NCBI GenBank assembly: GCA_963719085.1
Contig: CAVRAL010000001.1
Location: 800,001-864,000 of the forward strand
Direction of reading: 5' to 3'
Length of the DNA stretch: 64,000 nt
DNA from: a candidate division FCPU426 bacterium
Lineage (GTDB): Bacteria > Oederibacteriota > Muellerivitia > Muellerivitales > Muellerivitaceae
The position numbers and the translations under genes were made by a program. The notes beneath the pieces were generated by a model, which saw nothing but the letters and a program-made list of their open reading frames with translations, ran no database searches and was not told the origin of the DNA. Of the stretch, positions 3,159 to 63,949 are shown one piece after another; the first letter of the stretch is position 1, and every line of letters begins with the position of its first letter.

Positions 3159-4862
3159 ATGCGGGATTGGGCGAAGCCGGCCACGACTTTATTGATGGCC
3201 CTCGTTTTGAGCTCGGCTTGTTTTTGTATTTATCTTTCCCATTTGGCCATCAACCACACTTACGACGGCATGGTTTTCGCCTCCCTCATTGAGCAGCCGC
3301 AAGTTTCTTTTTGGGAATTATTTCATCCCCATCATTTAATCTATAACTTTTTGGGCCGCCTGTTTTTTCTTTGGGGACACACCCACGGGGCGGATTGGGA
3401 CGGTCTGGAAGCCCTTCAATTTTTCGATCTTCTCACCGGCACCCTGGGCGTGTTGCTGGTCTTTCATCTCTTGGTCCGCCTGACCAGGGACCGATGGATC
3501 TCGTTTTTATCCGCGCTCGGGTTGTCTTTTACCTATAGTTATTGGTACTTTTCCACTTCCCCCGGGGTGCGCATTTTGGCGACCGTCACCCCGCTTTTGG
3601 CCTGGTACGTCTTTTCATACGTGAAAGATCGAGGTGTTTTTTACGGTTTGGTTTTAGGCCTGGCGCACACCTTGGCGGTTTTAGGACACCAAACCAACCT
3701 CCTTTTGGTTCCGGCTTTCCTGGGCGGGATTTGGTGTGTCCGCGAAAAAAGCAAAATGGAAAAGCTATGGATCAGTTTCTTTTACTTGGGGTCCCTCGCA
3801 GTGGGCGTGATAGGGGCTTACGCGTTTATTGGGCGTTTCTTATGTGAAAGAACCACCTACGCCGCTTGGGTTTGGTGGTTGATGTCCTACATGCACGTCA
3901 AGGAATGGGGAGGACACTTGGGACCGGCGGGTTTTGAGCGGGGAAAATTCGCGATGGTGTTTGCCTTTTTAGCCGGTGCTTACCCCACCAAGCCGCTGGG
4001 GGAGTTTTTGACCTTTGGATTCGCCAAGAGCATCTTTCAAAACGCCCTTTTATTCGTGCTGGGGGCCCTATTGATTCAAATTCGTTCTTTGTGGGAGAAA
4101 TACTCCTCAACGCTTTGGATTGGCTTGTTTTGGCTGCTGGCCTTTGTTCCTTTTTTTGTCTGGTGGGAACCTTGGAATATTGAGTTCTGGGTCTCCTCCA
4201 CCGTCCCTTGCTGGATTTTGATGGGAATCGTGGTTTCGGACCTGTCGTTGAAATTCACCAATCCGGTCCTTCAATACTCCAACCGATTTTTATTTATTTT
4301 TTTATGGGCCTGTTTAATCGGATTGCTTTTTCTCTATAACTTTGAGGGCCGGGCTCCCAAAAGCCCGGCTTCGTACGCCAATAAAACCCTTTTGACCGCC
4401 ATGGACCACTCGATGAAATCCCATGATCTTTTAATTTTAACGGGGCTGAACACGATCCCGTTTTACATCGACCGGTTTGATCATCGCCCCTATTTGAGCC
4501 TGCAGACCTATTTTAAAAAATACCGGCCGTCCACGGATGACGCCGACGCGGCACCGCAAGCGCCCGGCGATCCATGGCAAGATCTGGACACGCTTTTTCA
4601 AACCACTTGGAAAAACCACCACCGGGTTTGGGTTCTGGCCGAAGTGGTGGATCCACAGGATGGCTGGGGCTCGCGGTTGGAACAGATGGAAAAAATGCAG
4701 GATGGAAGTTTGAGGAATTTTTTTGATGGATACGATTTAAAACCCGCCCCCGATCAAGACCGGGCTTATTTTTATGAGGTTGTTCCAAAAGCGCCGGCGG
4801 GCACCGCGGCGGCCCCCTCGCCCACTCCCGCGTCGTCCCGCCAATCCGGTAAATCCCGATGA
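3159..4862 (+). CDS. Multi-pass membrane protein, GT-C-like glycosyltransferase candidate
   Basis: Many hydrophobic helices, an acidic TYDG loop after the first TM helix, an HPHHL motif and a soluble C-terminal domain. The family assignment is an inference from topology. Confidence 0.5.
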   Translation: MRDWAKPATTLLMALVLSSACFCIYLSHLAINHTYDGMVFASLIEQPQVSFWELFHPHHLIYNFLGRLFFLWGHTHGADWDGLEALQFFDLLTGTLGVLLVFHLLVRLTRDRWISFLSALGLSFTYSYWYFSTSPGVRILATVTPLLAWYVFSYVKDRGVFYGLVLGLAHTLAVLGHQTNLLLVPAFLGGIWCVREKSKMEKLWISFFYLGSLAVGVIGAYAFIGRFLCERTTYAAWVWWLMSYMHVKEWGGHLGPAGFERGKFAMVFAFLAGAYPTKPLGEFLTFGFAKSIFQNALLFVLGALLIQIRSLWEKYSSTLWIGLFWLLAFVPFFVWWEPWNIEFWVSSTVPCWILMGIVVSDLSLKFTNPVLQYSNRFLFIFLWACLIGLLFLYNFEGRAPKSPASYANKTLLTAMDHSMKSHDLLILTGLNTIPFYIDRFDHRPYLSLQTYFKKYRPSTDDADAAPQAPGDPWQDLDTLFQTTWKNHHRVWVLAEVVDPQDGWGSRLEQMEKMQDGSLRNFFDGYDLKPAPDQDRAYFYEVVPKAPAGTAAAPSPTPASSRQSGKSR

Positions 4863-7800
4863 GCGCTTCCACCCGATGGATCCTGATCGGATTTCTTTTG
4901 TGGGGTGGATGGGCGGGGGCGAACGCGTCCCTTGACGCCCAAGAGGATTCGATCGGTTTTCAACCCAACGCGACCCTCACGGTAGCGCCGGATTTGACGC
5001 CCAGCCCGACTGTTTCGGCGGCGGGGGAGCCCTCGGAGTCGCTGGGGCAAGACCGCCCTTGGTTGAACGATCTCTATTTGTGGAACGAATCCTATAACCT
5101 GGATAAGGGGGGGGTCTCCGCCCAAAAGGCTGGCGCCTATTGTGTGGGAAATGGGCATTCTTTCACATTGATTGGGTTGGAATCACCGCTTTGGGATTGG
5201 TCGAGTATTTATGGGGATTCTTATCAAGAGCCGGATCTGGGCCACTTTCAAATGGGGATTTCACGGGACGGCTCGGACGTGCGGCTGGCGCAGCAAAAAA
5301 TAGGATGGGTCCGCCGTTCCGGTGTGGTGAAGGTTCAAGCCCAAGGGAACGGACTGCTGGTGGAGTCTTATGACTTCGCGCCTTGCCAGTGGAATCGCAG
5401 TTGGGAAGACAATCCGCCGGCCTTGATCCGCGTGGTGCGTGTGGTCAACCAAGGCTCGGTGACTGAAAGCTCCTTGAGTCTTCATTTTAAAATCATTCCG
5501 GCTTGGAACGTGCAAGCCCAGTTCAAAACCGAAAAAAACGACTCGGTGATCATTCAAAAACCCACCCGGGCCAAACGAAGGACCTATTGGCGCCTGGCGG
5601 CTTTTGATGACCGGGGTTGTTCGGCTCAGCCCCGGTTATTGGATGATTCGCTCCCGCCGGTGGCTCCGGGCGGGGAAGTCTGGGCGGCTTACTTCCTCAT
5701 CTCCTCCGACAGCCCGGAAGAGGGAAAGGCCCTGGCGGCCCAACTACGCGCGCAAGGACCGGCCAGCCTTTTGGATGGAACCCGGGATTATTATCAAAAA
5801 TGGTTTCAATCGGGAACGGAATTTTCCGGAGCCCAGCGGATCACGGACCTCTTTGAAATTCAGTCCCTGATTTATAAAAGCGAGGAGTCCCATTCGGGCG
5901 GCTTTTCGCCCTTGATCGGTTATTCCTACACCTGGATCCGGGACAACAACGGGCCGATCCGCTGGTTTTTGAAAACCGGCCACGAAAAAGAGGCCAAGGG
6001 CGCCATTGATTTTTTTCATGGCGTGGCTTCCAGCATGGGTTCCTTGCCCAACAGCATCCGGGTGGACTATCCCTTGAGCTACCGTTTGCAGGATTTATCC
6101 GCCATTCATGTGGAACACGCGGAGACACCCAATTGGATTATTTTGCAGCATTGGTGGTATTACCTGGCCACGGGGGATTTGGGCACAATCCGTCAAAGGT
6201 GGCCCTATCTCAAACGCTGTTTGACCGGACAGGTTCAACAAGAGGGAAAATATTTTTTTCATCGCGACGAAACCTATCTTTGGTGTTTGGAATCACGCTG
6301 TTTCGACCATGAAACTTATCCCAATTACGATTTATCCACTTACGCCTTCGCGACGGACTCCAGTTTTGATTTCGTGGCGGCCGCGGACCGATTGGTTTAT
6401 TTGGGAAATCTTTTAGGCCTCTCCACCGTGGATATTAAAACCACGGCGGATTCGGTTCGGGACACCGCTGAAAAAACCTATTGGAACAAGGACAATCAAT
6501 ATTGGGCGCCCGCCCAGTCGCTCCTGGGGCCGCTTTATAACGCGCCTTACGCCAATATTTTAATCAATCCCTTCTGGTGCGGATACGCCCGCAACGATTT
6601 GGACCCTTTGGGCGAGACGCCGGACACGGAAGCGAAAGCCATCCAGGCGCTTTCAGCCGGTTATCAATGGCTGGGCAAAAGCGATGGATTTTGGAAGACC
6701 ACGCCGAACGTGGATTTTTTTGTCGGCATGAACCCGGGACAGCTTCTTTATGACCTTTGTAAAGCCCGCCTTCCTTGGGCCCAAAAGGCCTTCTCCAATG
6801 TTTTGGACATCGCCAGTCCTTCGGGGGATTTTTCCGAGATGTATGATGGAAAGTATTTGCCTTGGAATCCGCCGGCCTGGGGATTGGGGACCAGCGGACG
6901 GGTCCGCCCTTGGGAAGGGGGACTCAGTACGGAGTCGCTTTTTGAGTTCGTGACGGGATTCGCCCCGGACGCGGGTCGGGGCCGGGTCGTTTTCGCGCCG
7001 CATTTGCCGCCCCATGAAAATGAGTTCGCGGCGGAAAAATTACCGGTCAAGGATTGCAAGGTCTCTTTGGAAATGAGGCGGGTGAATTCCGACAGCTGGC
7101 AGGTTTTGACCCGATTGGATCAAGGGAGCTCGCTTCAAGTGGTCCTTGATTTTTGGCCCACGGACCGTTTGATCGCCGCCGTGGATATGCCCAACGGAGT
7201 GGACTGGCAAAAAACGGTCGATCAAACCCAGGGCGGCGAGGCCCGATTCCAGTTTAACTTGACGTCCGATCAACCCGAGACTTTTGTGGTTCATGAGGGG
7301 GCTTCGTTATCGGAGTCCGTCAAAAACCCGCCCGCGCCGGAAAAATTTAATCCCAAACCTTACTCAACGAACAATTCGGACATTCTATTGTTGACGACGC
7401 CCTCGGCGGTTTTTTCTTATCACGGCCACGTTTTGCCCGTTAACTTTTTAAAAGTGGGCCGGGAAGAGCTCGCTTTAATGAATCGTTTATCGCCTTCGGT
7501 TAGTTTTCTCGACTTGGATCTGCCGATTTCAACCCACGACGTGGCTTCCGCCTTATTGGATGAACAAGGCCATCCGAAAGTCAAACTGGCTGTCTGGGGC
7601 CGGGGGGCGCTGTCTTCCGGGAAACACGATTTTAAGCCGGATTCCTATTGGGAAGATGCCGAGATTGGAAACGCGGTTAAAAAATTCCTCGAGGCGGGCG
7701 GCAATGTGCTGATCGGCCCCTCTTACTTGGACCGGGAAGTCCAGCCTGCCTGGCTGGTGGATTTGACGAAGGGCGGCTGGGACGAGGGCGAGACGCCCGG

Positions 7801-8554
7801 GACGGCCGTCGCTTTGGGCCCGAAGGAAAAATCGCCGCTTAAATTCATGGATGAAATTGATGTCGCCAACGCCCAATCGGAAGCCGACCATCAGGTTCAA
7901 TCCGACGGATTGGTCTCCATGGACAAGGTGAGTTTGCCCGAATTGCCCCGCTTAACCAAAAGTGTGGAAGACGATGGGCGGAGTTTTAAGGGCTTTTACC
8001 AATTTACGGCCAAGACCGAGCCGGGCCTTCCGCATCGGGTTTGGGTCCGCGTGAATACGGGTAAAAATACCGCGGGAATGGCGTTGATGGTTCGAAAGGG
8101 AAGCGATTGGGTCCAAGCGGGCATTCGGACCAAAAATTCCGGGAACGGGACCAATTTTTTAACCTTCTATTTCGAGGTTCCTCAAGATCTGATTCAAGCG
8201 GATCAAACGGTCTTCCGCTTGGTCGACAAAAACACCGTGGAAATAAACGCCTATCATCTTTGGGTATTCCAATTGGCCTCGGAAGCGGAAGCCTCGCCGG
8301 CGGAGCTATTGGGTTTCCCGATCAACCAAACCGTGGGCCCAGTCGACCATGGATTGATTCCGAAGGGACCCTCCTGGGTCAAGCCCCTGGTCTTAAGTCA
8401 AAACCCTTCGGAAGCGGCGCTTTTAATGCAACGGATTGGGAAAGGCACCTTGATCCGAAGCCAGCTGAGCCTGGCGGATTCCTTAAGCTTGATGACGACT
8501 CTTTTGAACCCTTCGCCGGAAATGAGCGCGACGACCCCGGAGGCGAAGGAATGA
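4859..8554 (+). CDS. Large secreted protein with a putative (alpha/alpha)6 glycoside hydrolase domain (GH15/GH63-like) and additional C-terminal domains
   Basis: Signal peptide; YSYTWIRD resembles the WxRD motif of six-hairpin glycosidases; later FSEMY segment; ATGA overlap with the upstream gene. Confidence 0.55.
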   Translation: MSASTRWILIGFLLWGGWAGANASLDAQEDSIGFQPNATLTVAPDLTPSPTVSAAGEPSESLGQDRPWLNDLYLWNESYNLDKGGVSAQKAGAYCVGNGHSFTLIGLESPLWDWSSIYGDSYQEPDLGHFQMGISRDGSDVRLAQQKIGWVRRSGVVKVQAQGNGLLVESYDFAPCQWNRSWEDNPPALIRVVRVVNQGSVTESSLSLHFKIIPAWNVQAQFKTEKNDSVIIQKPTRAKRRTYWRLAAFDDRGCSAQPRLLDDSLPPVAPGGEVWAAYFLISSDSPEEGKALAAQLRAQGPASLLDGTRDYYQKWFQSGTEFSGAQRITDLFEIQSLIYKSEESHSGGFSPLIGYSYTWIRDNNGPIRWFLKTGHEKEAKGAIDFFHGVASSMGSLPNSIRVDYPLSYRLQDLSAIHVEHAETPNWIILQHWWYYLATGDLGTIRQRWPYLKRCLTGQVQQEGKYFFHRDETYLWCLESRCFDHETYPNYDLSTYAFATDSSFDFVAAADRLVYLGNLLGLSTVDIKTTADSVRDTAEKTYWNKDNQYWAPAQSLLGPLYNAPYANILINPFWCGYARNDLDPLGETPDTEAKAIQALSAGYQWLGKSDGFWKTTPNVDFFVGMNPGQLLYDLCKARLPWAQKAFSNVLDIASPSGDFSEMYDGKYLPWNPPAWGLGTSGRVRPWEGGLSTESLFEFVTGFAPDAGRGRVVFAPHLPPHENEFAAEKLPVKDCKVSLEMRRVNSDSWQVLTRLDQGSSLQVVLDFWPTDRLIAAVDMPNGVDWQKTVDQTQGGEARFQFNLTSDQPETFVVHEGASLSESVKNPPAPEKFNPKPYSTNNSDILLLTTPSAVFSYHGHVLPVNFLKVGREELALMNRLSPSVSFLDLDLPISTHDVASALLDEQGHPKVKLAVWGRGALSSGKHDFKPDSYWEDAEIGNAVKKFLEAGGNVLIGPSYLDREVQPAWLVDLTKGGWDEGETPGTAVALGPKEKSPLKFMDEIDVANAQSEADHQVQSDGLVSMDKVSLPELPRLTKSVEDDGRSFKGFYQFTAKTEPGLPHRVWVRVNTGKNTAGMALMVRKGSDWVQAGIRTKNSGNGTNFLTFYFEVPQDLIQADQTVFRLVDKNTVEINAYHLWVFQLASEAEASPAELLGFPINQTVGPVDHGLIPKGPSWVKPLVLSQNPSEAALLMQRIGKGTLIRSQLSLADSLSLMTTLLNPSPEMSATTPEAKE

Positions 8555-12941: not shown

Positions 12942-15908
12942 TGAGGGTGAAGGCGTTCCCGGCCTTCCGGAAGTTTATTCTTTCCGGTTTTTTAGTGATG
13001 GTTTGCGCCCCTTTTGAAAATCTCCATTCCGCGGGAATTCATCAGCCGGATCTTTTGGACCAAGGCCGGGTTCTTTTACGGGCCCGCGCTTATGAGCTCG
13101 CGCTCAACCGGTTTTTATGGTTGGAAAAAAACAGCGACAATGACGGGGAGCGGTCCTTGGCCCTGCGCATGGTCGGCGAGACCCAGTTCAAAAACGCGGA
13201 TTACGCCTCCGCTTATCAGGCTTATCAAGAGTCCCTTCGGCTGACCCCGCTTTCTTCCGGCAAGCTCAACCTCGAGTTTAAGGCGGCGATTTCGCTGGTT
13301 TATCTGAAAAAATACGACTCCGCCCTCGAGAAATTAACGCGGGTGGAAAATCGGGTGGCCGATAAGGGCTTTTTGACCGACCTCTATTTTTGGGAAGGGG
13401 AGTGCTATTTCCAGTTGGGCCAATATGACTTGGCCCGGCAAAAATACGGCAAGATATTCGCCACCAATATGCGTTACCGATACGTTTATCTGGTCCGCTA
13501 CCTCGATTCCTGGTGCGCGTTTGAGCAGAAGGATTATGACGCGGCCTTGGGAGGCTTTAGCGAAGTCGAGGCCAAAACGGATGATTCAACCTTGAAAAAG
13601 ACGGCCGCTTTCCAGGTGGCGGAGTCGCTCTATCGGGCCGGGCGTTATCCGGAAGCGCAAAAAAAATACGGCGATTTCGCGGCGGACTACCCGGCGGATC
13701 ATTTAAAACCCGCCGCGGTCTATGGACTGGGCTGGTCCTTTGAAAAACAAGGGAAACTGAACGACGCGATTCAGGCTTTCGACCAGGTCCAGACCCAATA
13801 TCCTAACGACCCCCTGGCGGCTTGGGCCGCGGTGCGGGAAGGCGCGGACGCCTCAGTCAACAACGATCCTGCGCTCGCTCAAAAGTCCTACCAAAGGACA
13901 TTGGAATTGGCGCCCAATAAAATCCCGTCGGATTTGGCCGAGTTCGGCCTGGGATGGCTGGCTTTTTCCGGCCAGCATTATGATGAGGCGGCCGCGCATT
14001 TTCTGAAGGTCTCGCTTTTCATCCCGGCAAGCCAGCTTTTGTGGGACGCGCAATATTTACGCGCCGGCGCGGCGTATTTGGAGGGGGATTACGTATCGTC
14101 CGAAAAAATTTATGAAAAGTGCTCGGCCGGCGCCGCGCCGGATCTGGCCCAGGCTTCCCAGTTTTGGATGGCTTGGTGTGATTATCATATGGGCCACTAC
14201 GAGGACGCCAAAAACTCTTTTGAAAAACTCGCCGAAGGCGCGCAAGACGATCCCTGGACCGCGCGGGCCCTTTGGGGCGCGGGGGAATCGGCCTATCAAT
14301 TGACCCAATATGACGGGGCGGTTTCGCTTTATCAAGGCGCTTTGGCGGTGGAGGACTGTCCCGTTTCCCAAGAGTGTTACTCGGGCATGGGGTGGAGTTA
14401 TTTTGAGGAGCAGAAATACCCGGAAGCTTTCAGCGCGTTTCAAAAAACGGTGTCGGTGAATCCGAGATCACCCCTGGCCTATGAGGCTCAATTGCGGGCC
14501 GGGGATTGCCAGTACAATCTGCACCAGTTCGATCAAGCGCAAATCGAGTATGAAAAGGTGATTAAAAACAAAGACGGGGCGCCCTATGAATTGGACGCGT
14601 TGGAACAGTTGGGCTGGTGCGCTTACCGATCCGAGTCTTTTGAGAACGCCGTAAGCTCGTGGAACCTGCTGGCTTCGCGGCCCGGCGCGGAGGAGCGCAA
14701 ACCCCGGCTTTTTTACTGGATGGCCTGGGCTTATTTCCGCGACAAAGCCTATGAAAAGTCCGCCGCTGAGTTTAAGGCGGTGGAAACTAATTTTCCGGAT
14801 GATCCGCTCGCCCCGGAGTCCCATTTGCGGGAAGGGGACTGTTATTTTAACCTGAAGGATTTTCATACCTCGAAAATAATTTACAAGAGTTTTTTGGACC
14901 AGTATCCCAATCATCCCCTCGTTCCCGACGCGCTTTATGGATTGCAATGGTCCGCGGATAAATTGGGGGAAAAGGACGAGGCGGATAAGGAGGCGCAGGA
15001 TTTCATGCAAAAATTCCCGGCCAGCCCCTATTCGCCGGATATCGAGCTTCGATTGGCGGACAGCCGTTTTCACGCGCAAGATTATTCAGGCGCCGTGAGC
15101 CAATATCAGGACTTTATCCAGCGTTTTGCCCAAAGCGATCTTTTGCCCCGGGCTTATTTTTGGATGGGCACGGCCCTGGTCAAACAAGATAAAACGGACG
15201 CGGCGGTTCCGGCTTTTCAAAAAGTCATTCAGGCCTATCCCTCGGATCCCCTGGCGCTGGAAAGCCAATTCAGCCTGGCATCGCTTTATTTTGAGCAAAA
15301 AGATTTCGCCGACGCCCTTAAAAACTATTCGGACATTTACCACAACTATCCCGATCATCGCCTGGCGCCTCACGCGCTTTTTAACAGCGCGGTGTGTGAA
15401 AAGCAGCCTGGGAGGGCCGGAGAAGGCCTTGGATGACTTTAACCAGCTCAGCCAGAAATATCCGGACGATCCGCTGGCCTTTGAGGCCGATATTCAGTCG
15501 GGTATTCTTTTGGAAAAGTTTTCCCGCTTTGACGACGCTTTAACCGCTTATTTCAAGGCGGGGCAGTCTCCCGACCCGGATTTGGCGGTCGAGGCCCATT
15601 TTTACCACGCCGATCTTCAACGCCAGCTGAAGCGCTATGACCCGGCGGTAAAAGAATTCAATGATTTGACGGCGAAGTTCCCCTCGGAGGACCAATGGGT
15701 GGTGACGGCTTTCGCCCAAATCGCGAAGTGCTATGAGGAACAAAATAAATACGACAAGGCTTATAAAGCTTATGAGCGGATTTTAAAATATACGAAAGAT
15801 AAAAGCTACCGGGCCGCCACCCTTAAACATATGAAGGCGCTGGGGCCTTATCTGAAAAAAGCCCCTTCCGCCGCTCCCGCCGCGGTTAAAACGGAGGCGC
15901 CGAAATGA
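12941..15908 (+). CDS. Large exported tetratricopeptide repeat protein, split by an apparent 1-nt frameshift near 15407
   Basis: ORF 12941..15436 is TPR-rich (repeated YP-D-P-LA motifs), and the same pattern continues in ORF 15126..15908 from LGGPEKALDDF. Removing one C at 15407/15408 fuses them into 988 aa. Confidence 0.8.
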
Positions 15909-17746
15909 TTCGAACGAAAGGCCTTATGATGGGGTCTTGGATCGGTTTGGCTGGATTTTTTTTCACCTTTTCCAATCTTTCGGCTCAAACCGCCGCTCCC
16001 ACATCGGTTGACGCCGAAAGTTTGGCGTCAGCGACGCCGGCCGCCCTGCCGACTCCCCTCGGTCAAGCCGCCACCTTGGTCAAACCCAGTGATGTCGAAA
16101 TGGAACAAGCGCCGCAAACCCTAAATCAAAAACCTTCCCAAGCCGAGGGCGTAACGGCGCCGGCGGCGTCTAAACCCACGGAGGTTCCGCAGTTTTCACT
16201 TCCCGATGTGGTGATTACGGGTGACAACGAGTTGACGATTGGGGCCAAGCGGCTTGAGCGGCCGGAAAATGACGTGACCCTGGGAACCCGGGATTTGAGC
16301 GACTTAAACCGCTCTTCGGATGATTTGCCCGGACTGGATAAAACCATAACCGCCTTATCCACCGAGGACACCGGCTCACCCCGCGCCTCCGCGCTGATTC
16401 TTCATTTAGGCGGCGGGGATTTGGGGACTTACGGCGGCTGGGGGTTGTTCGGGCAAAGTTTTCAATCGTTCGAGTATTTGCTGACCGGCGGTTATTCCAA
16501 TTGGGGAGGGGAGCCGGCAGGGCCGGGGCACGATGGGGAGGAGCGCGCTAAAATCGGGTTTGACGGGGAGCTTTTACCCCAAGGCCCGCTGAACTTGGAT
16601 TTTTCCGCCAATGTAGAAAAGGCGGACGCGGAACTGCCCTATGAAAATTCCTCGAGCGAAACTCGATCGGGTCTGAATTTAAAAGGGACCCTGACGACGA
16701 AACTTTCGAATTTCACCGATCTTAATTTTCAAATTCAGGATGAGCAAACCCAATTGACCACTTGGGATCTAAATTTGAGCCAAGCCAGCGTCAATGAGTT
16801 GGAGGGGAAGGGCCGGTTGTCATTTGACGAGATAAACTCTTTCCTGGAAAATATTTCCCTGGAGGCGGGCGGCCGGGACGGGACGTCCTCCGATTTACCG
16901 CCGGGAGCGGTGAGTGATTATCACTGGGGATGGATGGAAGCGTCCGCCCAATGGAAGCTGGGCGATGAGGGAACCCTGACCACCCGGCTTCAAGGACAAG
17001 GCGGGGGAGGCGGCCTTGATTTACCGCTTCGGTTTTATCCTTCGGCGGATCTCTATTGGCATCTTTTTGAGGATACCCAATTGGAATTCAATTACACCAA
17101 CAGCCGGTCCATCGATGACTTTTACCAAAGTTATATGGAATCCGATCATGTTTCCGACTCGGCGGGATTCGCCCTTCCGACCGAGCGGATCAACGAGTTC
17201 GGCGTAAAGTGGACGCAAAAGGTCACCGATCAATCGATCTTCTCGATATTTGGATCGGATGGTGAGATCAGCAATTATCATCAATGGACCGACCTGTTGC
17301 CCTCGGGCGCGGTGACTTATATCCAAGACGATTCCACCATTGGGCTGATCGATTTGAAAAAGGCCGGCGTCAATTTTCAATTTGATTTCGACCGAAATTT
17401 GGCACTGTCGGCCAAGTATCAATGGGAAGAGGGGACCAACAAGTCAGATGGACAGAATTTAACCGAGCTGCCGGCCGATCAATTTTGGGCCGCCCTTTTG
17501 AAAACCGAGGACAATTGGGACGCCAAAATCGGGCTGCAATGGGTTTCCGCGCGAAACGCTTTCGCGACCCGTCCCGATCAACTGCCGGCCTATTGGACCT
17601 TGGGCTTTTCCGGAAGCTATCATTTTGAAAGAGCCCTGAGTCTTTGGTTTTCAGCGGAAAATTTGTTAGGGGAATCCTATCAGTTGGAGCCGGGGTATGA
17701 TGAACCGAGATTTTACACGCAGGCGGGGATCGAACTCATTTTTTAA
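15905..17746 (+). CDS. Outer membrane beta-barrel protein resembling a TonB-dependent receptor
   Basis: Signal peptide, TonB-box-like LPDVVITG, amphipathic strands, C-terminal AENLLGESY...PGY...GIELIF ending in Phe; adjacent to exbB/exbD/tonB. Confidence 0.7.
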   Translation: MIRTKGLMMGSWIGLAGFFFTFSNLSAQTAAPTSVDAESLASATPAALPTPLGQAATLVKPSDVEMEQAPQTLNQKPSQAEGVTAPAASKPTEVPQFSLPDVVITGDNELTIGAKRLERPENDVTLGTRDLSDLNRSSDDLPGLDKTITALSTEDTGSPRASALILHLGGGDLGTYGGWGLFGQSFQSFEYLLTGGYSNWGGEPAGPGHDGEERAKIGFDGELLPQGPLNLDFSANVEKADAELPYENSSSETRSGLNLKGTLTTKLSNFTDLNFQIQDEQTQLTTWDLNLSQASVNELEGKGRLSFDEINSFLENISLEAGGRDGTSSDLPPGAVSDYHWGWMEASAQWKLGDEGTLTTRLQGQGGGGGLDLPLRFYPSADLYWHLFEDTQLEFNYTNSRSIDDFYQSYMESDHVSDSAGFALPTERINEFGVKWTQKVTDQSIFSIFGSDGEISNYHQWTDLLPSGAVTYIQDDSTIGLIDLKKAGVNFQFDFDRNLALSAKYQWEEGTNKSDGQNLTELPADQFWAALLKTEDNWDAKIGLQWVSARNAFATRPDQLPAYWTLGFSGSYHFERALSLWFSAENLLGESYQLEPGYDEPRFYTQAGIELIF

Positions 17747-28765: not shown

Positions 28766-28800
28766 TTAAGGGCGGGGAAAAGGGCGGTTCTTCGACTTTT

Positions 28801-29965: not shown

Positions 29966-31027
29966 TTAGGCCCTCGGTTTTTGCATTTTACGGAATTGTT
30001 TTAACACCGCGTCCATTTCTGAAATCGGCGTTAAATTCAAGGCCTGGGTCCCCGGGCCCGCGCCAAAGGCCCTCCCATGGGCTTTGCGGGCACCCGTGGA
30101 AGCCAGCTTCACGTAGCTTTCACTGACCACAATGCTGGAATGGCCCATTAAATCCCGAATCTCATAGGCGGAAGCCCCGGATTCGGCTAATTGGGTTCCA
30201 AAGGAGTGGCGCAGGGCGTGGACGGTGATATCCTCGGCCATTTCCAATCCGGCCCAGGCGGCGGCCTGTTTCACCCAAGTCTCAATGTAATCCGGATGGA
30301 TGGGTTTGGCCGCGCTCCGCGGGCTTGAGAATAAATAATCGGAAGCCGGCAGGCCCGCCGCGTTTTTTTCCGCCAGGTACCTTTTTAATTGGGTCTGGAG
30401 CATTTTGGTCATGGGGATGGTTCGTTCTTTGTCGCCCTTGCCGATGACGGTGACTAAGCCTTGGTCCAGGTTGACGTCGCTCAATTTCACGCGAGAAATT
30501 TCGGAGACCCGCAGGCCGCAGTGGTAGCCCAAAAGGACCGTCAGGCTTATTTTGAGGTCGTTGAACTCCTGGACCCTTAACCCCTGGACGAGGCGGTCCC
30601 GGTCCTTGATCGCCAGCGGATGGGGGTTTCTTTGGGGGCTTCGGATGTTCAAGTTATGGAAGACGGCCGTGGGATCATTGGTGATGTACTGGATGGAGGC
30701 CAAATGCCGGTAAAAAGAGCGGGTGGCGGCCAAAATTCGTTTCATGGACCTGGTTGAGTAGGCCGCCCGCGGCTTGCCGCTGGGAGTCAAGCCGGGCTTG
30801 GTCAAGGACGCCGCGAAGCGGATCAAGTGCTCGGGTTTTACATTTTGAGGCCCCTCAATGCCCAAACCATCCAAAAACTGCTTCAGGATCCTTAAATCTT
30901 GATGATAGTTTTCCTGGGTGTGGGTTGACTTGCGCAGGGACAAAAAGTCGTCGTAGGGGCTGAGGAGGCGCAAATCTTGCGCGGGTTCGTTAGGATTGGC
31001 CGATGGATGGGATGGAGTCGGTTTCAT
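29966..31027 (-). CDS. Tyrosine recombinase, XerC/XerD-like
   Basis: Core-binding N-domain and a complete catalytic set: GLRVSE, GKGDKER, HALRH, LMGH and SESY. ATG 31027 chosen as start. Confidence 0.92.
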   Translation of the reverse strand: MKPTPSHPSANPNEPAQDLRLLSPYDDFLSLRKSTHTQENYHQDLRILKQFLDGLGIEGPQNVKPEHLIRFAASLTKPGLTPSGKPRAAYSTRSMKRILAATRSFYRHLASIQYITNDPTAVFHNLNIRSPQRNPHPLAIKDRDRLVQGLRVQEFNDLKISLTVLLGYHCGLRVSEISRVKLSDVNLDQGLVTVIGKGDKERTIPMTKMLQTQLKRYLAEKNAAGLPASDYLFSSPRSAAKPIHPDYIETWVKQAAAWAGLEMAEDITVHALRHSFGTQLAESGASAYEIRDLMGHSSIVVSESYVKLASTGARKAHGRAFGAGPGTQALNLTPISEMDAVLKQFRKMQKPRA

Positions 31028-31055
31028 ATTTGGTATAACTGTAATTATACCGAAT
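31028..31055. other. dif-like tyrosine recombinase site (11-6-11)
   Basis: ATTTGGTATAA-CTGTAA-TTATACCGAAT; the arms are 10/11 identical inverted repeats with the TAA-N6-TTA core of dif sites. Confidence 0.7.
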
Positions 31056-31071
31056 AACTTTCCGGGTTCAA
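31044..31071 (-). promoter_or_regulatory. Putative sigma70 promoter of the recombinase, overlapping the dif-like site
   Basis: Minus strand TTGAAC-N16-TATAAT; the -10 box lies inside the palindrome. Confidence 0.55.
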
Positions 31072-31090
31072 GCCTAAAATGAAAGCCCAA

Positions 31091-32607: not shown

Positions 32608-35600
32608 CTAAAAAATAGGGGCTAAATTAAAAATAAACTCCGGCGGGACGTTCTCATCGGTGCGCCAAGCCACGTCAAACCTTAATTCCACTAAGGATTG
32701 CTGGAACAAGAAACTGTAAAAACGGATGCCGGCTCCCACGCTGTTATGAAAAACGCTTTGGGGCAATTCCCCGATTTTGTCCGAAACAACCCCCGTGTCC
32801 ATGAAAACCGCCAGTTCCACATCCTTGATCAACAGAAAAGACAGGGGCTGTAAAACAAAGTTCAGGTTTTCGACCAAGGGATACCGCAATTCGGTGTTCC
32901 AAAGCGCCACATTGCTTCCAAAAAAAGTCTGTCCCCCGAATCCCCGGATCGTGGTGAAGTAGGATTGAAAGGGCTGGTCGTCCCCGAGGAAAAACGTCTG
33001 GGGGTCCGGGCCTTGGGAGGTGATGCCGACTAAGCGGTTGGCCCAGACCAAGTGATTGAGGAAATCAAAATTAACGTAAGCTTGGGTCTCTAAAAAGACG
33101 TTGGCGAAATTGACGTTGGAATCCAGCACGGGAAGCGATTGAAGGAGCGTCAGATTGTAGGAGTAGCCGCTGTCGGGCCAAAATTGGGTTCCCCGGCGGT
33201 GATCTTTGATGTAGGCCAGCCGGTAAAAATTGGCCACATCCCATTGGCTGGAATTTTGGTTGTAGTTGGAAATCCCCTCGTTGAACTGCAGGTAAAGCGG
33301 GTTGCCTTGGAAGCGCTGGCTGCCCACGCCGTACTCCACCCGGGTATAGGTATCCAGCGGATAGCTGAAGGTCAGATCAAAACCGTTTTCATTGTCCCGG
33401 TACTGGTTCACGATATTCCCGGTTTGAAGGTCATAAAGCTGTAGGTAATTTTGATAGTAGTAAAAATCAAAATCGACCGTGGTTCTCCACTGGGAGAATT
33501 CATAGCCCAGCTGGATTCCGGTTTGGACGCTGGGGATGGAGTTGCCCACCAGCGAAATGCGGTGGTCCCCCAGGTAATCGCTCATTTGAACCACTCCCCC
33601 GCCCACAAAGCCGAAGGAACTGTCGTAGCCGGCCAGGAACAACAGGATATCGGGCGTCATTTTGATTCCGTAATCGTGGCCCTCGGTTTTGGATTGGGGA
33701 ACGGCGTCCACGATGGAAGACGGCGCGCTTTCGCCCGACGCGTTCTCGGCGGTCACGTAATAAAAGTAATGCTGGGCGGACTCCACCTCGAAATCGTTGA
33801 ACACATTCACGTTCGCGTTGGCGGTTTTCCCCGCGAAGCGGAAGGGCGCGCCCGGGGCCGTGGCCCGGTAAACGCGGTAATCATCCACCGGCGTCTCTTC
33901 CCCCTCGGTGGCGGTCCACTGGAGTTGGACCAGATTCGTCGCTTGAACCACCTGCAAGGCCGAAACCGGCGCCGGTTGGGACGGTTGGGGGCCCGCGGCC
34001 GCCGGAAGCGGGACCGGCTTCGCGTTGGGGTCCGAGGCGTCCAAGGCGGTCACGGTGTTGGAAACGGGGATCACCTTGGCGGCCCCGGAAAAGTCATTGG
34101 CCAGGAAAACGGCCCCACCGGGTGGATTGGGCAGGCGCTCGAACGCCTCCTGTTTAAACTGATAAAGCGATTCTTTCGATTTTTGGTAGAGGCCGACGTA
34201 AAAGAAATTCTCATCCGGCGACACCGAGACACTGAGGGTGTCCGTGAAGGTGTTGGTCAATTGGGTGAGGTGGGCGCCGTTCAAATCCATTTGATAGAGG
34301 TTAAATATTTTATTGTTCCGGTTCGAGGTGAAATAAATCGATTGCCCGACCGCCTGGAACGAGGTGATGGAGTCCAGATCCTTCCCCAGGGTCACCGGAA
34401 GGGCTTGCGGGTCCGGCAGACCGTCCTGGGTTAAACGCAGTTGAATCAGCGCGGTGGTCCCGGAATCCTCTTGAAGGTAAAAAATCGAATCGCCCCGGGT
34501 GGAATACTGGGCCCAGGACTTGTTGGCGGTGCTTTGGGTGAGGCGGTCCACCCGCCCGGTGGCCAGCTCATAACGGTATAGGTCGGTTGAAAAATAATCG
34601 TATCCGGAAAACAGGATATATTTTTGATCGATGGACCAAGCCGGCGAAAAAAGCATGGGGAGATTTTTGACCGGGTATTCCTCGGACTTGCGGGTCCTCA
34701 CTTGGGTGACCCAAAGCCGGTTTTCCCCGTTCCGGTTGACGACGGCGGCGATAAATTGACCGTCCGGCGACCAAGCCAAACCGGACCCGCGGGTATTGAA
34801 CGTATCGCTCTTTAAAACATGCTTCTCTTTGGTGGTGGTATCCAGGATTCCCAGCTCGTCCCGCTTCAGGTAGGCCACCCAGCGCCCGTCCGGCGACACC
34901 GCGCTTTTGCCGGCTCCGGCTTCCAGCACTTCCCCGTATTTTTCAGGGACAGGCAAGCCTTGGATGCGGGCCCAGGTCTGGGCTTTGAGGAAAAAGTGCC
35001 AGTTTTGGTAGAGCTGATCCATGCTGAGGCCGAAAAGATTTTTGATCACGGCGTCCGGCGATTGGTTGTTCGCCATTCTTTTCATCATGTCGGGAACCTT
35101 GTCCGGGCCGTAAACTTGGGTGACATAGTCCAGGATGCTTTGGGATTCCTTGTAAGCGGTGTAAACCTGGGGAAAATGCCCGAAGGAGTTCAGCAGATTC
35201 AAGGGCAGCACGTCGTCATTGAGGATCGCGTCCCGCAAAACCATTTCCCCCTGCCCGTCCAAATGCTGGGCGTTCCATTCGGCCATGCCTTCCATCATCC
35301 AAGTGGGCACCAAGACGGATTTAAACAAATTGATGGACCGCCAGCCTTCGCCGTAAATCAGGTTGTATTGAAAGGCGTGGGTCAGCTCATGGGTGATGAC
35401 CTTATTCAACTCGTAATAAGAGCCGTCCATGGGGACCACGATCCGGTTTTTAAAAACCTCGGTAAAGCCGCCCACGCCCTCATCCAGGAATTCCTCCGTA
35501 ATGTTGGTTTCTTGGAACTGCTGGGGGGTGCCATAGATGAAAAGCGGGATTTTATTTTGAGGCTGGGGGACATAATTGAACATCCGGCTGGTTTTTAAAA

Positions 35601-35829
35601 AAGCCGCTTCGCAGTCTTGGCTGGCGATTTGGGCTAATTTCTCGCAAGGGTCATAATAGTAAATTTCGAAATGATCAGTTTCCAGAACGCGCCAATGGAG
35701 GTCATCGTGATACCGGACTTTGTTGATCCCGAACTCAAGCGCGTCCGCGCCGGTGAGAAAGCCAAAAAACAGCAACAACCAAGCCCCGACGATGGGTTTC
35801 CAGGTTTTTGAGAGGAAAACAAAATTCAT
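32608..35829 (-). CDS. Omp85/BamA-TamA family protein with N-terminal zinc-peptidase-like domain, TolB-like propeller and FN3 domain
   Basis: HELTH...WMMEGMAE, SPDG/WSPDG repeats, FN3 (LQW...YRVYR...YYVTAEN..GES), barrel with IRGF and GAGIRF, terminal Phe. Confidence 0.82.
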   Translation of the reverse strand: MNFVFLSKTWKPIVGAWLLLFFGFLTGADALEFGINKVRYHDDLHWRVLETDHFEIYYYDPCEKLAQIASQDCEAAFLKTSRMFNYVPQPQNKIPLFIYGTPQQFQETNITEEFLDEGVGGFTEVFKNRIVVPMDGSYYELNKVITHELTHAFQYNLIYGEGWRSINLFKSVLVPTWMMEGMAEWNAQHLDGQGEMVLRDAILNDDVLPLNLLNSFGHFPQVYTAYKESQSILDYVTQVYGPDKVPDMMKRMANNQSPDAVIKNLFGLSMDQLYQNWHFFLKAQTWARIQGLPVPEKYGEVLEAGAGKSAVSPDGRWVAYLKRDELGILDTTTKEKHVLKSDTFNTRGSGLAWSPDGQFIAAVVNRNGENRLWVTQVRTRKSEEYPVKNLPMLFSPAWSIDQKYILFSGYDYFSTDLYRYELATGRVDRLTQSTANKSWAQYSTRGDSIFYLQEDSGTTALIQLRLTQDGLPDPQALPVTLGKDLDSITSFQAVGQSIYFTSNRNNKIFNLYQMDLNGAHLTQLTNTFTDTLSVSVSPDENFFYVGLYQKSKESLYQFKQEAFERLPNPPGGAVFLANDFSGAAKVIPVSNTVTALDASDPNAKPVPLPAAAGPQPSQPAPVSALQVVQATNLVQLQWTATEGEETPVDDYRVYRATAPGAPFRFAGKTANANVNVFNDFEVESAQHYFYYVTAENASGESAPSSIVDAVPQSKTEGHDYGIKMTPDILLFLAGYDSSFGFVGGGVVQMSDYLGDHRISLVGNSIPSVQTGIQLGYEFSQWRTTVDFDFYYYQNYLQLYDLQTGNIVNQYRDNENGFDLTFSYPLDTYTRVEYGVGSQRFQGNPLYLQFNEGISNYNQNSSQWDVANFYRLAYIKDHRRGTQFWPDSGYSYNLTLLQSLPVLDSNVNFANVFLETQAYVNFDFLNHLVWANRLVGITSQGPDPQTFFLGDDQPFQSYFTTIRGFGGQTFFGSNVALWNTELRYPLVENLNFVLQPLSFLLIKDVELAVFMDTGVVSDKIGELPQSVFHNSVGAGIRFYSFLFQQSLVELRFDVAWRTDENVPPEFIFNLAPIF

Positions 35830-45065: not shown

Positions 45066-46100
45066 TTATTGCCCGTTGGCCGCCAAGGCGGCCAACGGAT
45101 TTTTACCCCACTTCACGATCCACCATTCCAAAAGGGTGGATAAGCCGGTCTTCCCAATCCGTCCCACGACTAACCCCGCTTGAATCCGGATTAAATCATT
45201 CATCGCCGCTTTAAGTTCCTCGCTGGAATATTGGCCGGCCTGTTCCCACAAACTTTTAACCCGGAAAGGGTGCAGTCCCAGCCGCTGGGCCATGTCCCCT
45301 TGGCTCAACCCTTCCGCCTTCCCCGCCGCCAGGCCCAAAAGGTCCCGCATCCTTTGATACATCATGAACACGATCCCGTTTTCGGATCCGGGCGCCATTT
45401 CGTGGAAGGACTGGATGGCTTTTTCGGTCCGGCGAAAGCCGACGGCGTCCAAAAAGGGAAAAATCTCGGCTTCGGTCCCGGGAATGGGAAGATCCAAAAT
45501 ATCCCGGAGCGTGGGTTTCTTCGCGGGCAGGATAAAAACGGATAAATGCTCCAAGGCCCGGCTTAAGTAGGCCATGTCGGTTCCCGTTTTTTGGATCAGC
45601 GCCTGGCAGGCTTCCTCGTTGATTTCAAGGCCCATCTCCTTGGCTTGCTGGCGGACCCAGGGGACCAATTTCCAATCCGGAATATCGGAGCATTGGACTG
45701 CCCAGCCTTTTTTCTCGAGATAGGCGACAATTTTGGAAGTTTTACGCAATCCGTTGGCCGTGAAAACCAGGGTGGAGTCCGGGCTGGGATTCTCGAAATA
45801 ATCGCTTAAACGGCTCAGCGCGGAGTCGGACCGGCCGCCCAAGGCTTTTTCCGCGTTGCGCAGGACCAACAGCTGTTGATTGGCGAACAAGGACGCCGTT
45901 TGCGCGCTGGACAAAAGCTCCGCGAACTGGGCTTCCCCGCTCTCAAAAACATTCACGGTGCCCTGCGGGAATTTGGACTTAAAGGCTTTTTTGAGATGGT
46001 TGTACCCTTCCGAAACCACGCCTTCGGAATCCCCGTAAAAAAGAACGGCCGCAGGCCAAACGCCTTTGGCGAGTTTTTGAATGTACTCATCGAAGTACAT
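45066..46100 (-). CDS. holA: DNA polymerase III subunit delta
   Basis: LFYGD, SLFA and LHPFR motifs; leuS-lptE-holA synteny. Confidence 0.88.
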   Translation of the reverse strand: MYFDEYIQKLAKGVWPAAVLFYGDSEGVVSEGYNHLKKAFKSKFPQGTVNVFESGEAQFAELLSSAQTASLFANQQLLVLRNAEKALGGRSDSALSRLSDYFENPSPDSTLVFTANGLRKTSKIVAYLEKKGWAVQCSDIPDWKLVPWVRQQAKEMGLEINEEACQALIQKTGTDMAYLSRALEHLSVFILPAKKPTLRDILDLPIPGTEAEIFPFLDAVGFRRTEKAIQSFHEMAPGSENGIVFMMYQRMRDLLGLAAGKAEGLSQGDMAQRLGLHPFRVKSLWEQAGQYSSEELKAAMNDLIRIQAGLVVGRIGKTGLSTLLEWWIVKWGKNPLAALAANGQ

Positions 46101-55285: not shown

Positions 55286-55320
55286 AAAAAAGCCCCCGAA
55301 CCTTGCGGTTCAGGGGCTTT
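55286..55320 (-). terminator. Intrinsic terminator of the cold-shock gene
   Basis: AAAGCCCC-GAACC...GGTTC-GGGGCTTT hairpin followed by a T-run on the minus strand. Confidence 0.85.
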
Positions 55321-63052: not shown

Positions 63053-63949
63053 TTAAATCGTCCTTTCCGCCATGTATTGCGCCAGCGCCACCAAGGGAGC
63101 GGCTTTCGCGCCAAAGGGTTTCAAAACCGCGACCGCTTCTTGGGTGAGCTTGGTCACTTCCCTTTTCGACGCCGACAATCCGACAGCGGCCGGATAGGTC
63201 ATTTTACCCCGGGCCTGGTCGCTTCCCGCCGACTTCCCCATTTTTTTCGCGTCACCGGTAGCGTTTAAGATATCGTCCACGATTTGAAAAGCCAATCCCG
63301 CCGCCCGGCCATAACGGGTAAAAGCCGAAACCGTTTTATCGGAAGCGCCAACCAGAATCGACGGTAAACGAACTGAAGATAAAAGAAGCGCCCCCGTTTT
63401 GCGGCTATGGATAGAGTAGACCTTTTTCAAACTGGGCTTCTGCTTCTCCGCCAAGATATCGTCCACCTGTCCGCCCACCATACCCGGATAACCCGCGTGA
63501 AAAGCCAATTCATGAATCACCATCGGCAGGTTCTTAAGATATTTTGAAGGAATTTGAGTCGGATCTGAAACCCATTGAAAAGCCAGGGTCTGAAGCCCAT
63601 CCCCCGCCAAAATGGCCATAGCTTCGCCAAAGACCTTGTGGTTGGTTTTGACTCCCCGACGATAATCATCATCATCTAAAGCTGGAAGATCGTCGTGGAT
63701 GAGGCTGTAAGTGTGGATGAGCTCCAACGCGCAAGCAATACGAAGCGCCGCCTTCTGCGGCAATCCCACCGCATCCGCCGCTGCCAGGCAAAGGACAGGT
63801 CGAAGCCGCTTGCCCCCGGCAAAAACGCTATAGCGCATCGATTCCCAAAGTCTCGTGGGACAGTCCCCGCGAGACTTAAAGACTTCCTTCAGGGCCGCAT
63901 CGACGATTTTTTGCTGTTGGACAAGGTACTGCGTGATTGAAAAGATCAA
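63053..63949 (-). CDS. ispA: Polyprenyl (farnesyl) diphosphate synthase
   Basis: GGKRLRP, SLIHDDLPALD, RRG, AILAGD, KTGAL and FQIVDD. Confidence 0.96.
   Translation of the reverse strand: MIFSITQYLVQQQKIVDAALKEVFKSRGDCPTRLWESMRYSVFAGGKRLRPVLCLAAADAVGLPQKAALRIACALELIHTYSLIHDDLPALDDDDYRRGVKTNHKVFGEAMAILAGDGLQTLAFQWVSDPTQIPSKYLKNLPMVIHELAFHAGYPGMVGGQVDDILAEKQKPSLKKVYSIHSRKTGALLLSSVRLPSILVGASDKTVSAFTRYGRAAGLAFQIVDDILNATGDAKKMGKSAGSDQARGKMTYPAAVGLSASKREVTKLTQEAVAVLKPFGAKAAPLVALAQYMAERTI

Follow-up and report, generated by a model that had tools for sequence, protein, structure and literature searches.

A lineage-specific Xer-type recombinase gene and its conserved dif-like site in a candidate division FCPU426 bacterium: a candidate single-recombinase dimer-resolution module

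The recombinase gene and its adjoining site

We examined a 64-kb stretch of DNA from a candidate division FCPU426 bacterium (contig CAVRAL010000001.1, positions 800,001 to 864,000; hereafter the window), in which the gene of a Xer-type tyrosine recombinase, here called xer, is directly adjoined by a dif-like palindrome. The analysis covered the window and flanks of at most 10 kb around orthologous genes. The two central features are as follows.

29966..31027, minus strand: gene of a Xer-type tyrosine recombinase of 353 amino acids (P0001), from translation, Pfam, and family alignment
31028..31055, no strand assigned: dif-like core site of 28 bp, with arms at 31028–31038 and 31045–31055 and a 6-bp asymmetric centre at 31039–31044

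The site reads ATTTGGTATAA-CTGTAA-TTATACCGAAT, and its two 11-bp arms are complementary to each other at 10 of 11 positions. It is intergenic, with the stop codon of a hydrolase gene (31091) on one flank and the ATG of xer on the other. The site adjoins this start codon, which appears as CAT at 31025–31027 because the open reading frame (ORF, 29966–31027) lies on the minus strand. An earlier reading made from the letters alone (the sequence-only reading) had reported an 11-6-11 site with 10/11 arms at 31028–31055 whose last base directly precedes the recombinase ATG, and our reading of the window bears out both points. The G+C content of the site is 7/28 (25%), compared with ~53% in the window overall and 0.49–0.57 across window bins. 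These attributes are those given for dif-type sites in a study of such sites (Carnoy and Roten 2009, PMC2731167): a 28-nt palindrome, two inverted repeats, a central hexanucleotide, a non-coding position, and a G+C content below that of the chromosome. The E. coli dif sequence with which the site had originally been compared was found exactly in K-12, and the 8/11 match between the minus-strand arm and the XerD arm is correct. The whole site agrees with E. coli dif at 15/28 positions; in a comparison of archaeal dif with the consensus from bacteria, agreement at 14/28 was reported (Cortez et al., PMC2958812).

The geometry by itself is not a rarity. Counting by script across the window, we found four 11-6-11 inverted repeats with at least 10/11 complementary positions, where 30 first-order Markov simulations gave 1.43 on average, and it is context and conservation that carry weight. 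The dif-like core TATAAYTRYARTTATA has one match in the window at two or fewer mismatches, where 0.02 would be expected, and the site is the sole occurrence of ATAA-N6-TTAT in the 64 kb. The other three 11-6-11 repeats (45072–45099, 55291–55318, and 63849–63876) are G+C-rich, unlike a dif-type site; the one at 55291 lies between genes and could be a terminator.

P0001 consists of an N-terminal SAM-like core-binding domain (PF02899, 42.3 bits) and a catalytic domain (PF00589, 104.8 bits). Both Pfam and the predicted structure describe a simple two-domain recombinase in which an arm-binding domain is absent. The catalytic residues R173, K197, H270, R273, H296, and Y305 align with the catalytic motifs of E. 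coli XerD and are invariant among 24 family members, in agreement with the intact set noted previously. The start of xer is placed at the ATG, as the N-termini of 24 homologues align there and GGAGG occurs between site and ATG in several orthologues. A longer ORF beginning at a TTG at 31090 was rejected on these same two grounds.

The cassette had been proposed to be analogous to but distinct from XerS/difSL, XerH, and archaeal XerA, and its protein is not assigned to XerC, XerD, XerA, or XerS by the NCBIfam models. P0001 falls below the cut-off of XerC (TIGR02224, 162.5 bits against 335.15), XerD (TIGR02225, 154.1 against 329.6), XerA (NF040815, 133.8 against 220), and XerS (NF003462, 83.1 against 267, through the catalytic domain only). 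XerH was absent from the NCBIfam matches of P0001. As controls, E. coli XerC scored 370.3 bits, E. coli XerD 398 bits, and a Paenibacillus protein 369 bits on the XerS model. Searched against solved structures, the family profile matched XerD best (144 bits), followed by XerA; XerH (PDB 5jjv) reached 52 bits through its catalytic domain only, below XerD, XerA, and IntI4. P0001 is 30% identical to E. coli XerD across 294 residues. An AlphaFold2 model of P0001 (predicted local distance difference test score, pLDDT, 85.5) has XerA, XerD, IntI4, and XerH as its top PDB fold matches.

When 45 recombinases were placed in a tree, the family and two near relatives formed a clade of their own (SH-aLRT 98, stem length 1.0), separate from E. 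coli XerC and XerD, one XerS, and cyanobacterial, actinomycete, and Chloroflexota recombinases. The labelled Xer references in this tree were E. coli XerC, E. coli XerD, and one protein passing the XerS cut-off; XerA, XerH, and XerL were absent from it, and placement relative to XerA and XerH relies on hidden Markov model (HMM) and PDB scores. A protein search returned ~110 clusters at 40–89% identity, every one of them from uncultured bacteria, below which identity fell sharply to 37% or less. No close relative was found on plasmids or phages, the best ones being ~33% identical. A literature search, with subscription-only papers outside its scope, found no account of the recombinase family or of its lineage.

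Conservation of the site and of its setting

A genome search yielded 16 orthologous loci with recombinases 57–70% identical to P0001. Thirteen of these include DNA upstream of the gene, while the remaining three (L011, L015, and L016) begin within it and could not be scored for the site. The sequence-only reading had suggested looking for the palindrome upstream of orthologues, and the same site is present there in 13/13 scorable loci, or in 14/14 when the window is counted (these 14 sites form the basis of the counts below). Conservation at all 13 orthologous loci argues decisively against a chance palindrome. The distance between site and start codon ranges from –7 to +14 nt in the window and the 12 orthologous loci having an ATG (L004, with an apparent TTG, was excluded). 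By the criteria of PMC2731167 a chromosome should carry a single dif-type site; within the DNA covered here, each of the 13 loci, which span 2.5–21 kb, has a single copy, as does the window. Neither a second copy, a cluster of half-sites, an integrated element, nor a recombination scar was detected in the window or within ±10 kb at the 13 loci.

The TATA cores of the arms (positions 7–10) and ATAA-N6-TTAT are invariant across the 14 sites, and the fifth base of the inner core of each arm differs in 4/14. The outer arms are of three types, CGGTATAA, CTTCTATAA, and TTCATATAA (named CGG, CTTC, and TTCA), each of which is mirrored in the opposite arm. These types track the recombinase tree, which omits L004, as it lacks an ATG start, as well as L011, L015, and L016, whose 5' ends are missing. 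We found that 93.5% of arm cells are paired, compared with 33–42% in controls in which the register was slid. Changes occurred on both sides at 7 of 11 arm positions, one-sided changes at the level of pairs numbered zero, and the covariation score was reached by 0 of 500 shuffles. The arm sequence has changed at least twice while the two arms stayed identical, as is predicted if one protein binds both halves. The paired changes fit a single protein on both half-sites, in line with the earlier suggestion that near-identical arms suit one recombinase.

The 6-bp spacer is constrained as well. It conforms to YTRYAR in 14/14 sites and is palindromic in none, although by our count about one-quarter of spacers would be expected to be so if nothing constrained the four variable positions. 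The outer spacer positions are T..G in seven sites, C..A in six, and T..A in one; as these bases vary, the asymmetric core can have either orientation relative to the gene. Judged by its conservation, the site is functional, and it almost certainly serves the adjoining recombinase as its cognate site.

Seven columns of the protein alignment (residues 66, 67, 69, 246, and 247, and two at the C-terminus) separate orthologues with CGG arms from those with CTTC arms. These columns were not used, since they are wholly confounded with phylogeny and there is no DNA-bound model.

A site beside a recombinase gene is also the usual layout of an integration module (PMC1914069), and P0001 and its palindrome might in principle be a remnant or still active pair of integrase and attachment site belonging to a mobile element. 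This explanation is already largely refuted, and we give it almost no credence. In Pfam scans of the 53 window ORFs, P0001 was the sole integrase, and domains of transposases, phages, plasmids, or transposons were absent, consistent with the earlier statement that no phage or transposon genes lie nearby. The simple two-domain make-up of P0001 and the distance of its nearest plasmid and phage relatives likewise speak against a mobile element. The gene order is also shared. Where the 16 loci reach far enough, they have genes for a PD40 protein, a peptidase-MA/Omp85 fusion, a 202-amino acid protein, and an alpha/beta hydrolase, then the site and xer, then an aminotransferase gene, and then convergent TPR, apt, and sigma genes. 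At least one of the neighbours flanking xer is present in all 16 loci, and the identities of neighbouring gene products (41–86%) are similar to those of the recombinase (57–70%). Conserved housekeeping gene order and matching divergence argue that the gene is not part of a mobile element, and that it is chromosomal and vertically inherited.

Overlap of the site with a predicted promoter

The site overlaps a predicted promoter of the gene it adjoins, a point absent from the sequence-only reading.

31044..31071, minus strand: predicted sigma-70-like promoter of xer, with –35 TTGAAC at 31071–31066, a 16-nt spacer, and –10 TATAAT at 31049–31044

The predicted promoter matches the consensus at 10 of 12 positions, and its –10 hexamer is composed of arm positions 7–11 and the first spacer base. 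A predicted –35/–10 pair with the –10 in a site arm was found at 12/14 loci by a relaxed rule and at 8/14 by a strict one. The –10 is predicted in the upstream arm at 10 loci, at four of which it is TATAAC and fails the strict rule, and in the downstream arm, 6 nt ahead of the ATG, at two (L010 and L013). The scan of the 14 sites found no such pair at L004 and L007.

A palindrome that overlaps a predicted promoter, with arms that could form a hairpin, might be the operator of some other dimeric regulator, or might act in RNA as a hairpin or terminator. Both options seem very unlikely. The RNA fold of the upstream region is unexceptional (z = –0.8), Rfam has no match in 28–33 kb of the window, and no T-run follows the stem of the palindrome. 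A transcript from the predicted –10 would lack the upstream (left) arm, and this, together with the ordinary fold, the lack of an Rfam match, and the paucity of wobble pairs (one in 154 arm cells), argues against an RNA hairpin. The strictly two-sided changes and near absence of wobbles instead fit a symmetry of double-stranded DNA. The site is moreover strictly linked to one recombinase family, whose tree its arm types follow, which speaks against both options.

It could alternatively be that the palindrome is an operator and nothing else, through which a dimer of the recombinase represses its own promoter, with the true recombination substrate elsewhere in the genome. The –10 predicted within an arm at 12/14 loci would suit this idea, as would the absence of a second copy or recombination scar within ±10 kb and of a skew turning point near the site (see below). 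However, a complete core site of a tyrosine recombinase is defined by just this structure, two inverted half-sites with a 6-bp spacer between them. An operator, furthermore, needs neither a constrained spacer (YTRYAR) nor one that is non-palindromic in 14/14 sites, and the dif-like geometry and ATAA/TTAT core also point away from it. We therefore regard an operator with no recombination function as improbable.

Proposed function and relation to known Xer systems

We favour, as the probable interpretation, a self-contained module in which a lineage-specific Xer-type recombinase and its own 28-bp site constitute a single-recombinase dimer-resolution system with built-in autoregulation. Two copies of P0001 would bind both near-identical 11-bp arms, and two occupied sites, for example the sister copies on a chromosome dimer, would synapse. 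Tyr305, assisted by R173, K197, H270, R273, and H296, would cut at the edges of the 6-bp centre, and strands would be exchanged via a Holliday junction. As the central region is always asymmetric, we propose that it fixes the alignment of the two sites, such that direct repeats would be resolved and not inverted. Because the –10 hexamer is part of one arm, occupancy of the site should silence transcription of xer in a form of negative autoregulation. By analogy with XerS/difSL and XerH/difH, the cellular role is most likely chromosome-dimer resolution. We infer in this scheme binding, recombination, the sufficiency of one recombinase, the role in dimer resolution, and autoregulation.

Several points weigh against this scheme. 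The case for binding and recombination is one of architecture, and a palindrome over a promoter also resembles a plain operator. In addition, unrelated recombinase genes from other phyla, among them those of actinomycetes, are preceded by similar 11-6-11 palindromes. Actinomycetes have XerCD. Given that they also show gene-linked palindromes, the architecture alone is no proof of a dimer-resolution role. A further point concerns FtsK. The XerD residues E183 and E184, which contact FtsK-gamma (PMC5052618), align to K208 and M209 in P0001, and with this pair missing, a XerD-style contact with FtsK is not indicated. The remaining points concern the replication terminus and are taken up below. No FtsK gene was found by Pfam scans of the window.

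The palindromes linked to other recombinases merit description. They were found (10/11, within ~110 bp upstream of the start) for 4 of 34 recombinase genes from loci L017–L079, namely at L043 6340–6367, L047 9629–9656, L061 3928–3955, and L077 9600–9627, belonging to Nitrospiraceae, Streptosporangium, Prauserella, and Cyclobacteriaceae. Those of actinomycetes share CTTCCGATAT-like half-sites, which recur several times in the upstream DNA of L057 and L061. Palindromic core sites beside the gene may be a common feature of stand-alone recombinases.

The sequence-only reading tentatively placed an undescribed cassette of dif and xer at the replication terminus. The conserved, gene-linked, dif-like site is upheld by our results; its terminal location is not, there being no turn of GC skew or of skew at third codon positions (GC3 skew) in the 64 kb. 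One feature is terminus-like.

28766..28800, no strand assigned: sole gene-orientation switch in the window, convergent, with ~25 plus-strand genes to the left and ~25 minus-strand genes to the right, 2.2 kb from the site

This convergent junction, at which the aminotransferase gene faces the TPR gene, is present in 11/11 of those orthologous loci, among the 16, that reach the TPR gene. It is the only terminus-like trait of the site. Total GC skew is positive from position 1 to ~39 kb and near zero beyond, and neither GC nor GC3 skew showed a turning point in the 31 kb on the left side of the site or in the 33 kb on its right. The GC3 skew of the plus strand is +0.053 to the left (5541 sites) and +0.148 and +0.099 to the right (7514 sites), whereas AT skew at third codon positions (AT3 skew) flips with gene strand. 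Mirror-image replichores meeting at the site predict opposite signs of GC3 skew, and the same sign seen on both sides indicates, by this measure, that no switch in replication direction occurs within the window. In the window and 10 of the 16 orthologous loci (±10 kb), the GC3 difference between the two gene sets was negative in four cases (at least 2.9 standard errors, SE), positive in two (at least 4.5 SE), and within 2 SE in five. These differences are without consistent sign and too noisy to place a terminus, and total GC skew in the orthologue flanks similarly follows no consistent sign pattern. The GC-skew shift point characteristic of dif-type sites is thus absent from the window, and a terminus position of the site is doubtful. 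Should the G-rich strand be the leading one, transcription of housekeeping genes (including leuS, holA, mutL, and dxs) would run head-on to replication over ~35 kb.

The skew data leave room for a genuine recombination site with a different job, operating beside a canonical XerCD/dif system, for instance as a chromosomal docking site for integrating elements or in some other conserved site-specific rearrangement. GC3 skew puts no replication-direction switch at the site, and gene-linked palindromes are found next to other recombinase families, both of which would accord with this alternative. On the other hand, no integrated element, duplicated site, or half-site was seen at the 13 loci within ±10 kb, and strict single copy and housekeeping synteny across orthologues of 57–70% identity fit a core cellular function. 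We judge such a different job unlikely, and about as unlikely as a bare operator.

For a module devoted to dimer resolution, a more far-reaching possibility can be entertained with some reserve. The module may be a further, independently evolved bacterial single-recombinase dimer-resolution system in addition to XerS, XerH, and XerL, in which symmetric arms of canonical geometry would co-evolve with the enzyme and one complex would serve both resolution and autoregulation. The site would then not have to lie at the compositional terminus, and this would suggest control without a XerD-type FtsK contact, as has been proposed for archaeal XerA.

The arrangement of site beside gene belongs to an already known kind. 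Site-next-to-gene modules have been described for XerS/difSL in streptococci and lactococci (Le Bourgeois et al. 2007, PMC1914069) and for XerH/difH (PMC2731167). The present pair shares the gene linkage of these modules, at 14/14 sites. Lineage-specific substitutes for Xer recombinases have also been reported as the 'Cand' and 'Cyan' subgroups (PMC8138268).

As in the present case, XerS is a single recombinase (of ~355 amino acids) with a conserved site directly upstream of its gene (PMC1914069; review PMC5357621). However, difSL is 31 bp in length and has an 11-bp centre and unequal arms (PMC5357621), whereas the site here is 28 bp with an 11-6-11 geometry and near-identical arms. P0001 is also far below the XerS cut-off (83.1 bits against 267) and lies apart in the tree from the Paenibacillus protein that passes it, and difSL is located at the compositional terminus, a position that is doubtful for the site here. 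The Paenibacillus protein (P. kribbensis, L041 9386–10474) scores 369 bits against the cut-off of 267, which indicates that XerS-type recombinases extend beyond streptococci and lactococci. No palindrome was found within 300 bp of its gene in a scan for 11-bp arms with 6–8 bp spacers, a range that excludes the 11-bp centre of difSL.

XerH/difH of Helicobacter and Campylobacter similarly combines a single recombinase with a palindromic site having a 6-nt centre, which is gene-linked in most species (PMC2731167, PMC3325230, PMC5241119). XerH differs in being a weak sequence relative (52 bits as compared with 144 for XerD), and difH has been related to difSL and not to canonical dif (PMC2731167). 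For XerL/dif of Legionellales, one recombinase has been shown to be sufficient, and the site has long, uninterrupted inverted-repeat arms (Nicholson et al. 2022, PMC9765430), which were there termed unusual. In contrast to the present arrangement, xerL and dif of L. pneumophila are separated by over 400 kb, and the catalytic tyrosine of XerL (Lpg1867 in Legionella) is Y387 as against Y305 in the 353-amino acid P0001 (PMC9765430).

Archaeal XerA/dif comprises a single recombinase and a 28-bp 11-6-11 site with few or no arm mismatches (Cortez et al. 2010, PMC2958812), and XerA structures are the top fold matches of the predicted P0001 model. According to that study, archaeal dif does not lie beside xerA, and the host here is instead bacterial; P0001 also falls short of the XerA cut-off (133.8 bits against 220). 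In the case of E. coli XerC/XerD-dif, XerD is the closest solved sequence relative of P0001, and the 11-6-11 geometry and ATAA-N6-TTAT core are shared. The E. coli system differs in having two recombinases, unlike arms, and genes unlinked to dif, and P0001 is under both equivalog cut-offs and lacks the E183/E184 pair.

If confirmed, the module would add another lineage-specific replacement of XerCD to XerS, XerH, XerL, and XerA, from an uncultured lineage known from metagenome-assembled genomes alone. It would also offer a clean natural case of co-evolution between a recombinase and its site, in which three symmetric arm types track the protein tree, and such matched pairs could serve as orthogonal tools. 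For difSL it was suggested long ago that a dif beside its gene also acts as a promoter element in autoregulation, and the overlap with the predicted promoter would lend this idea sequence-level support. Xer biology in general would look no different.

The surroundings of the module are those of a housekeeping region. The window carries aroA, cmk, rpsA, der, plsY, gpsA, a sigma-70 factor gene, and apt on one side, and miaA, mutL, murJ, holA, leuS, recN, and dxs on the other. The nearest named relatives of LeuS are labelled Omnitrophica (56–58% identity). In the window, xer and the aminotransferase gene are one base apart (29966 and 29964), and the corresponding gap is ~400–500 bp in most orthologues (L002–L016, measured between matched ends). 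Three plus-strand ORFs have no Pfam match at E ≤1e-5 (3159–4862, 567 amino acids; 4859–8554, 1231 amino acids; and 15905–17746, 613 amino acids). The peptidase-MA/Omp85 gene (32608–35829, minus strand) encodes a 1073-amino acid protein that unusually joins a peptidase-MA domain to TolB-like beta-propeller repeats and an Omp85 barrel at the C-terminus. Of the 12 orthologous loci with DNA at the corresponding position, 8 have this fusion, and L006, L008, L009, and L013 lack it.

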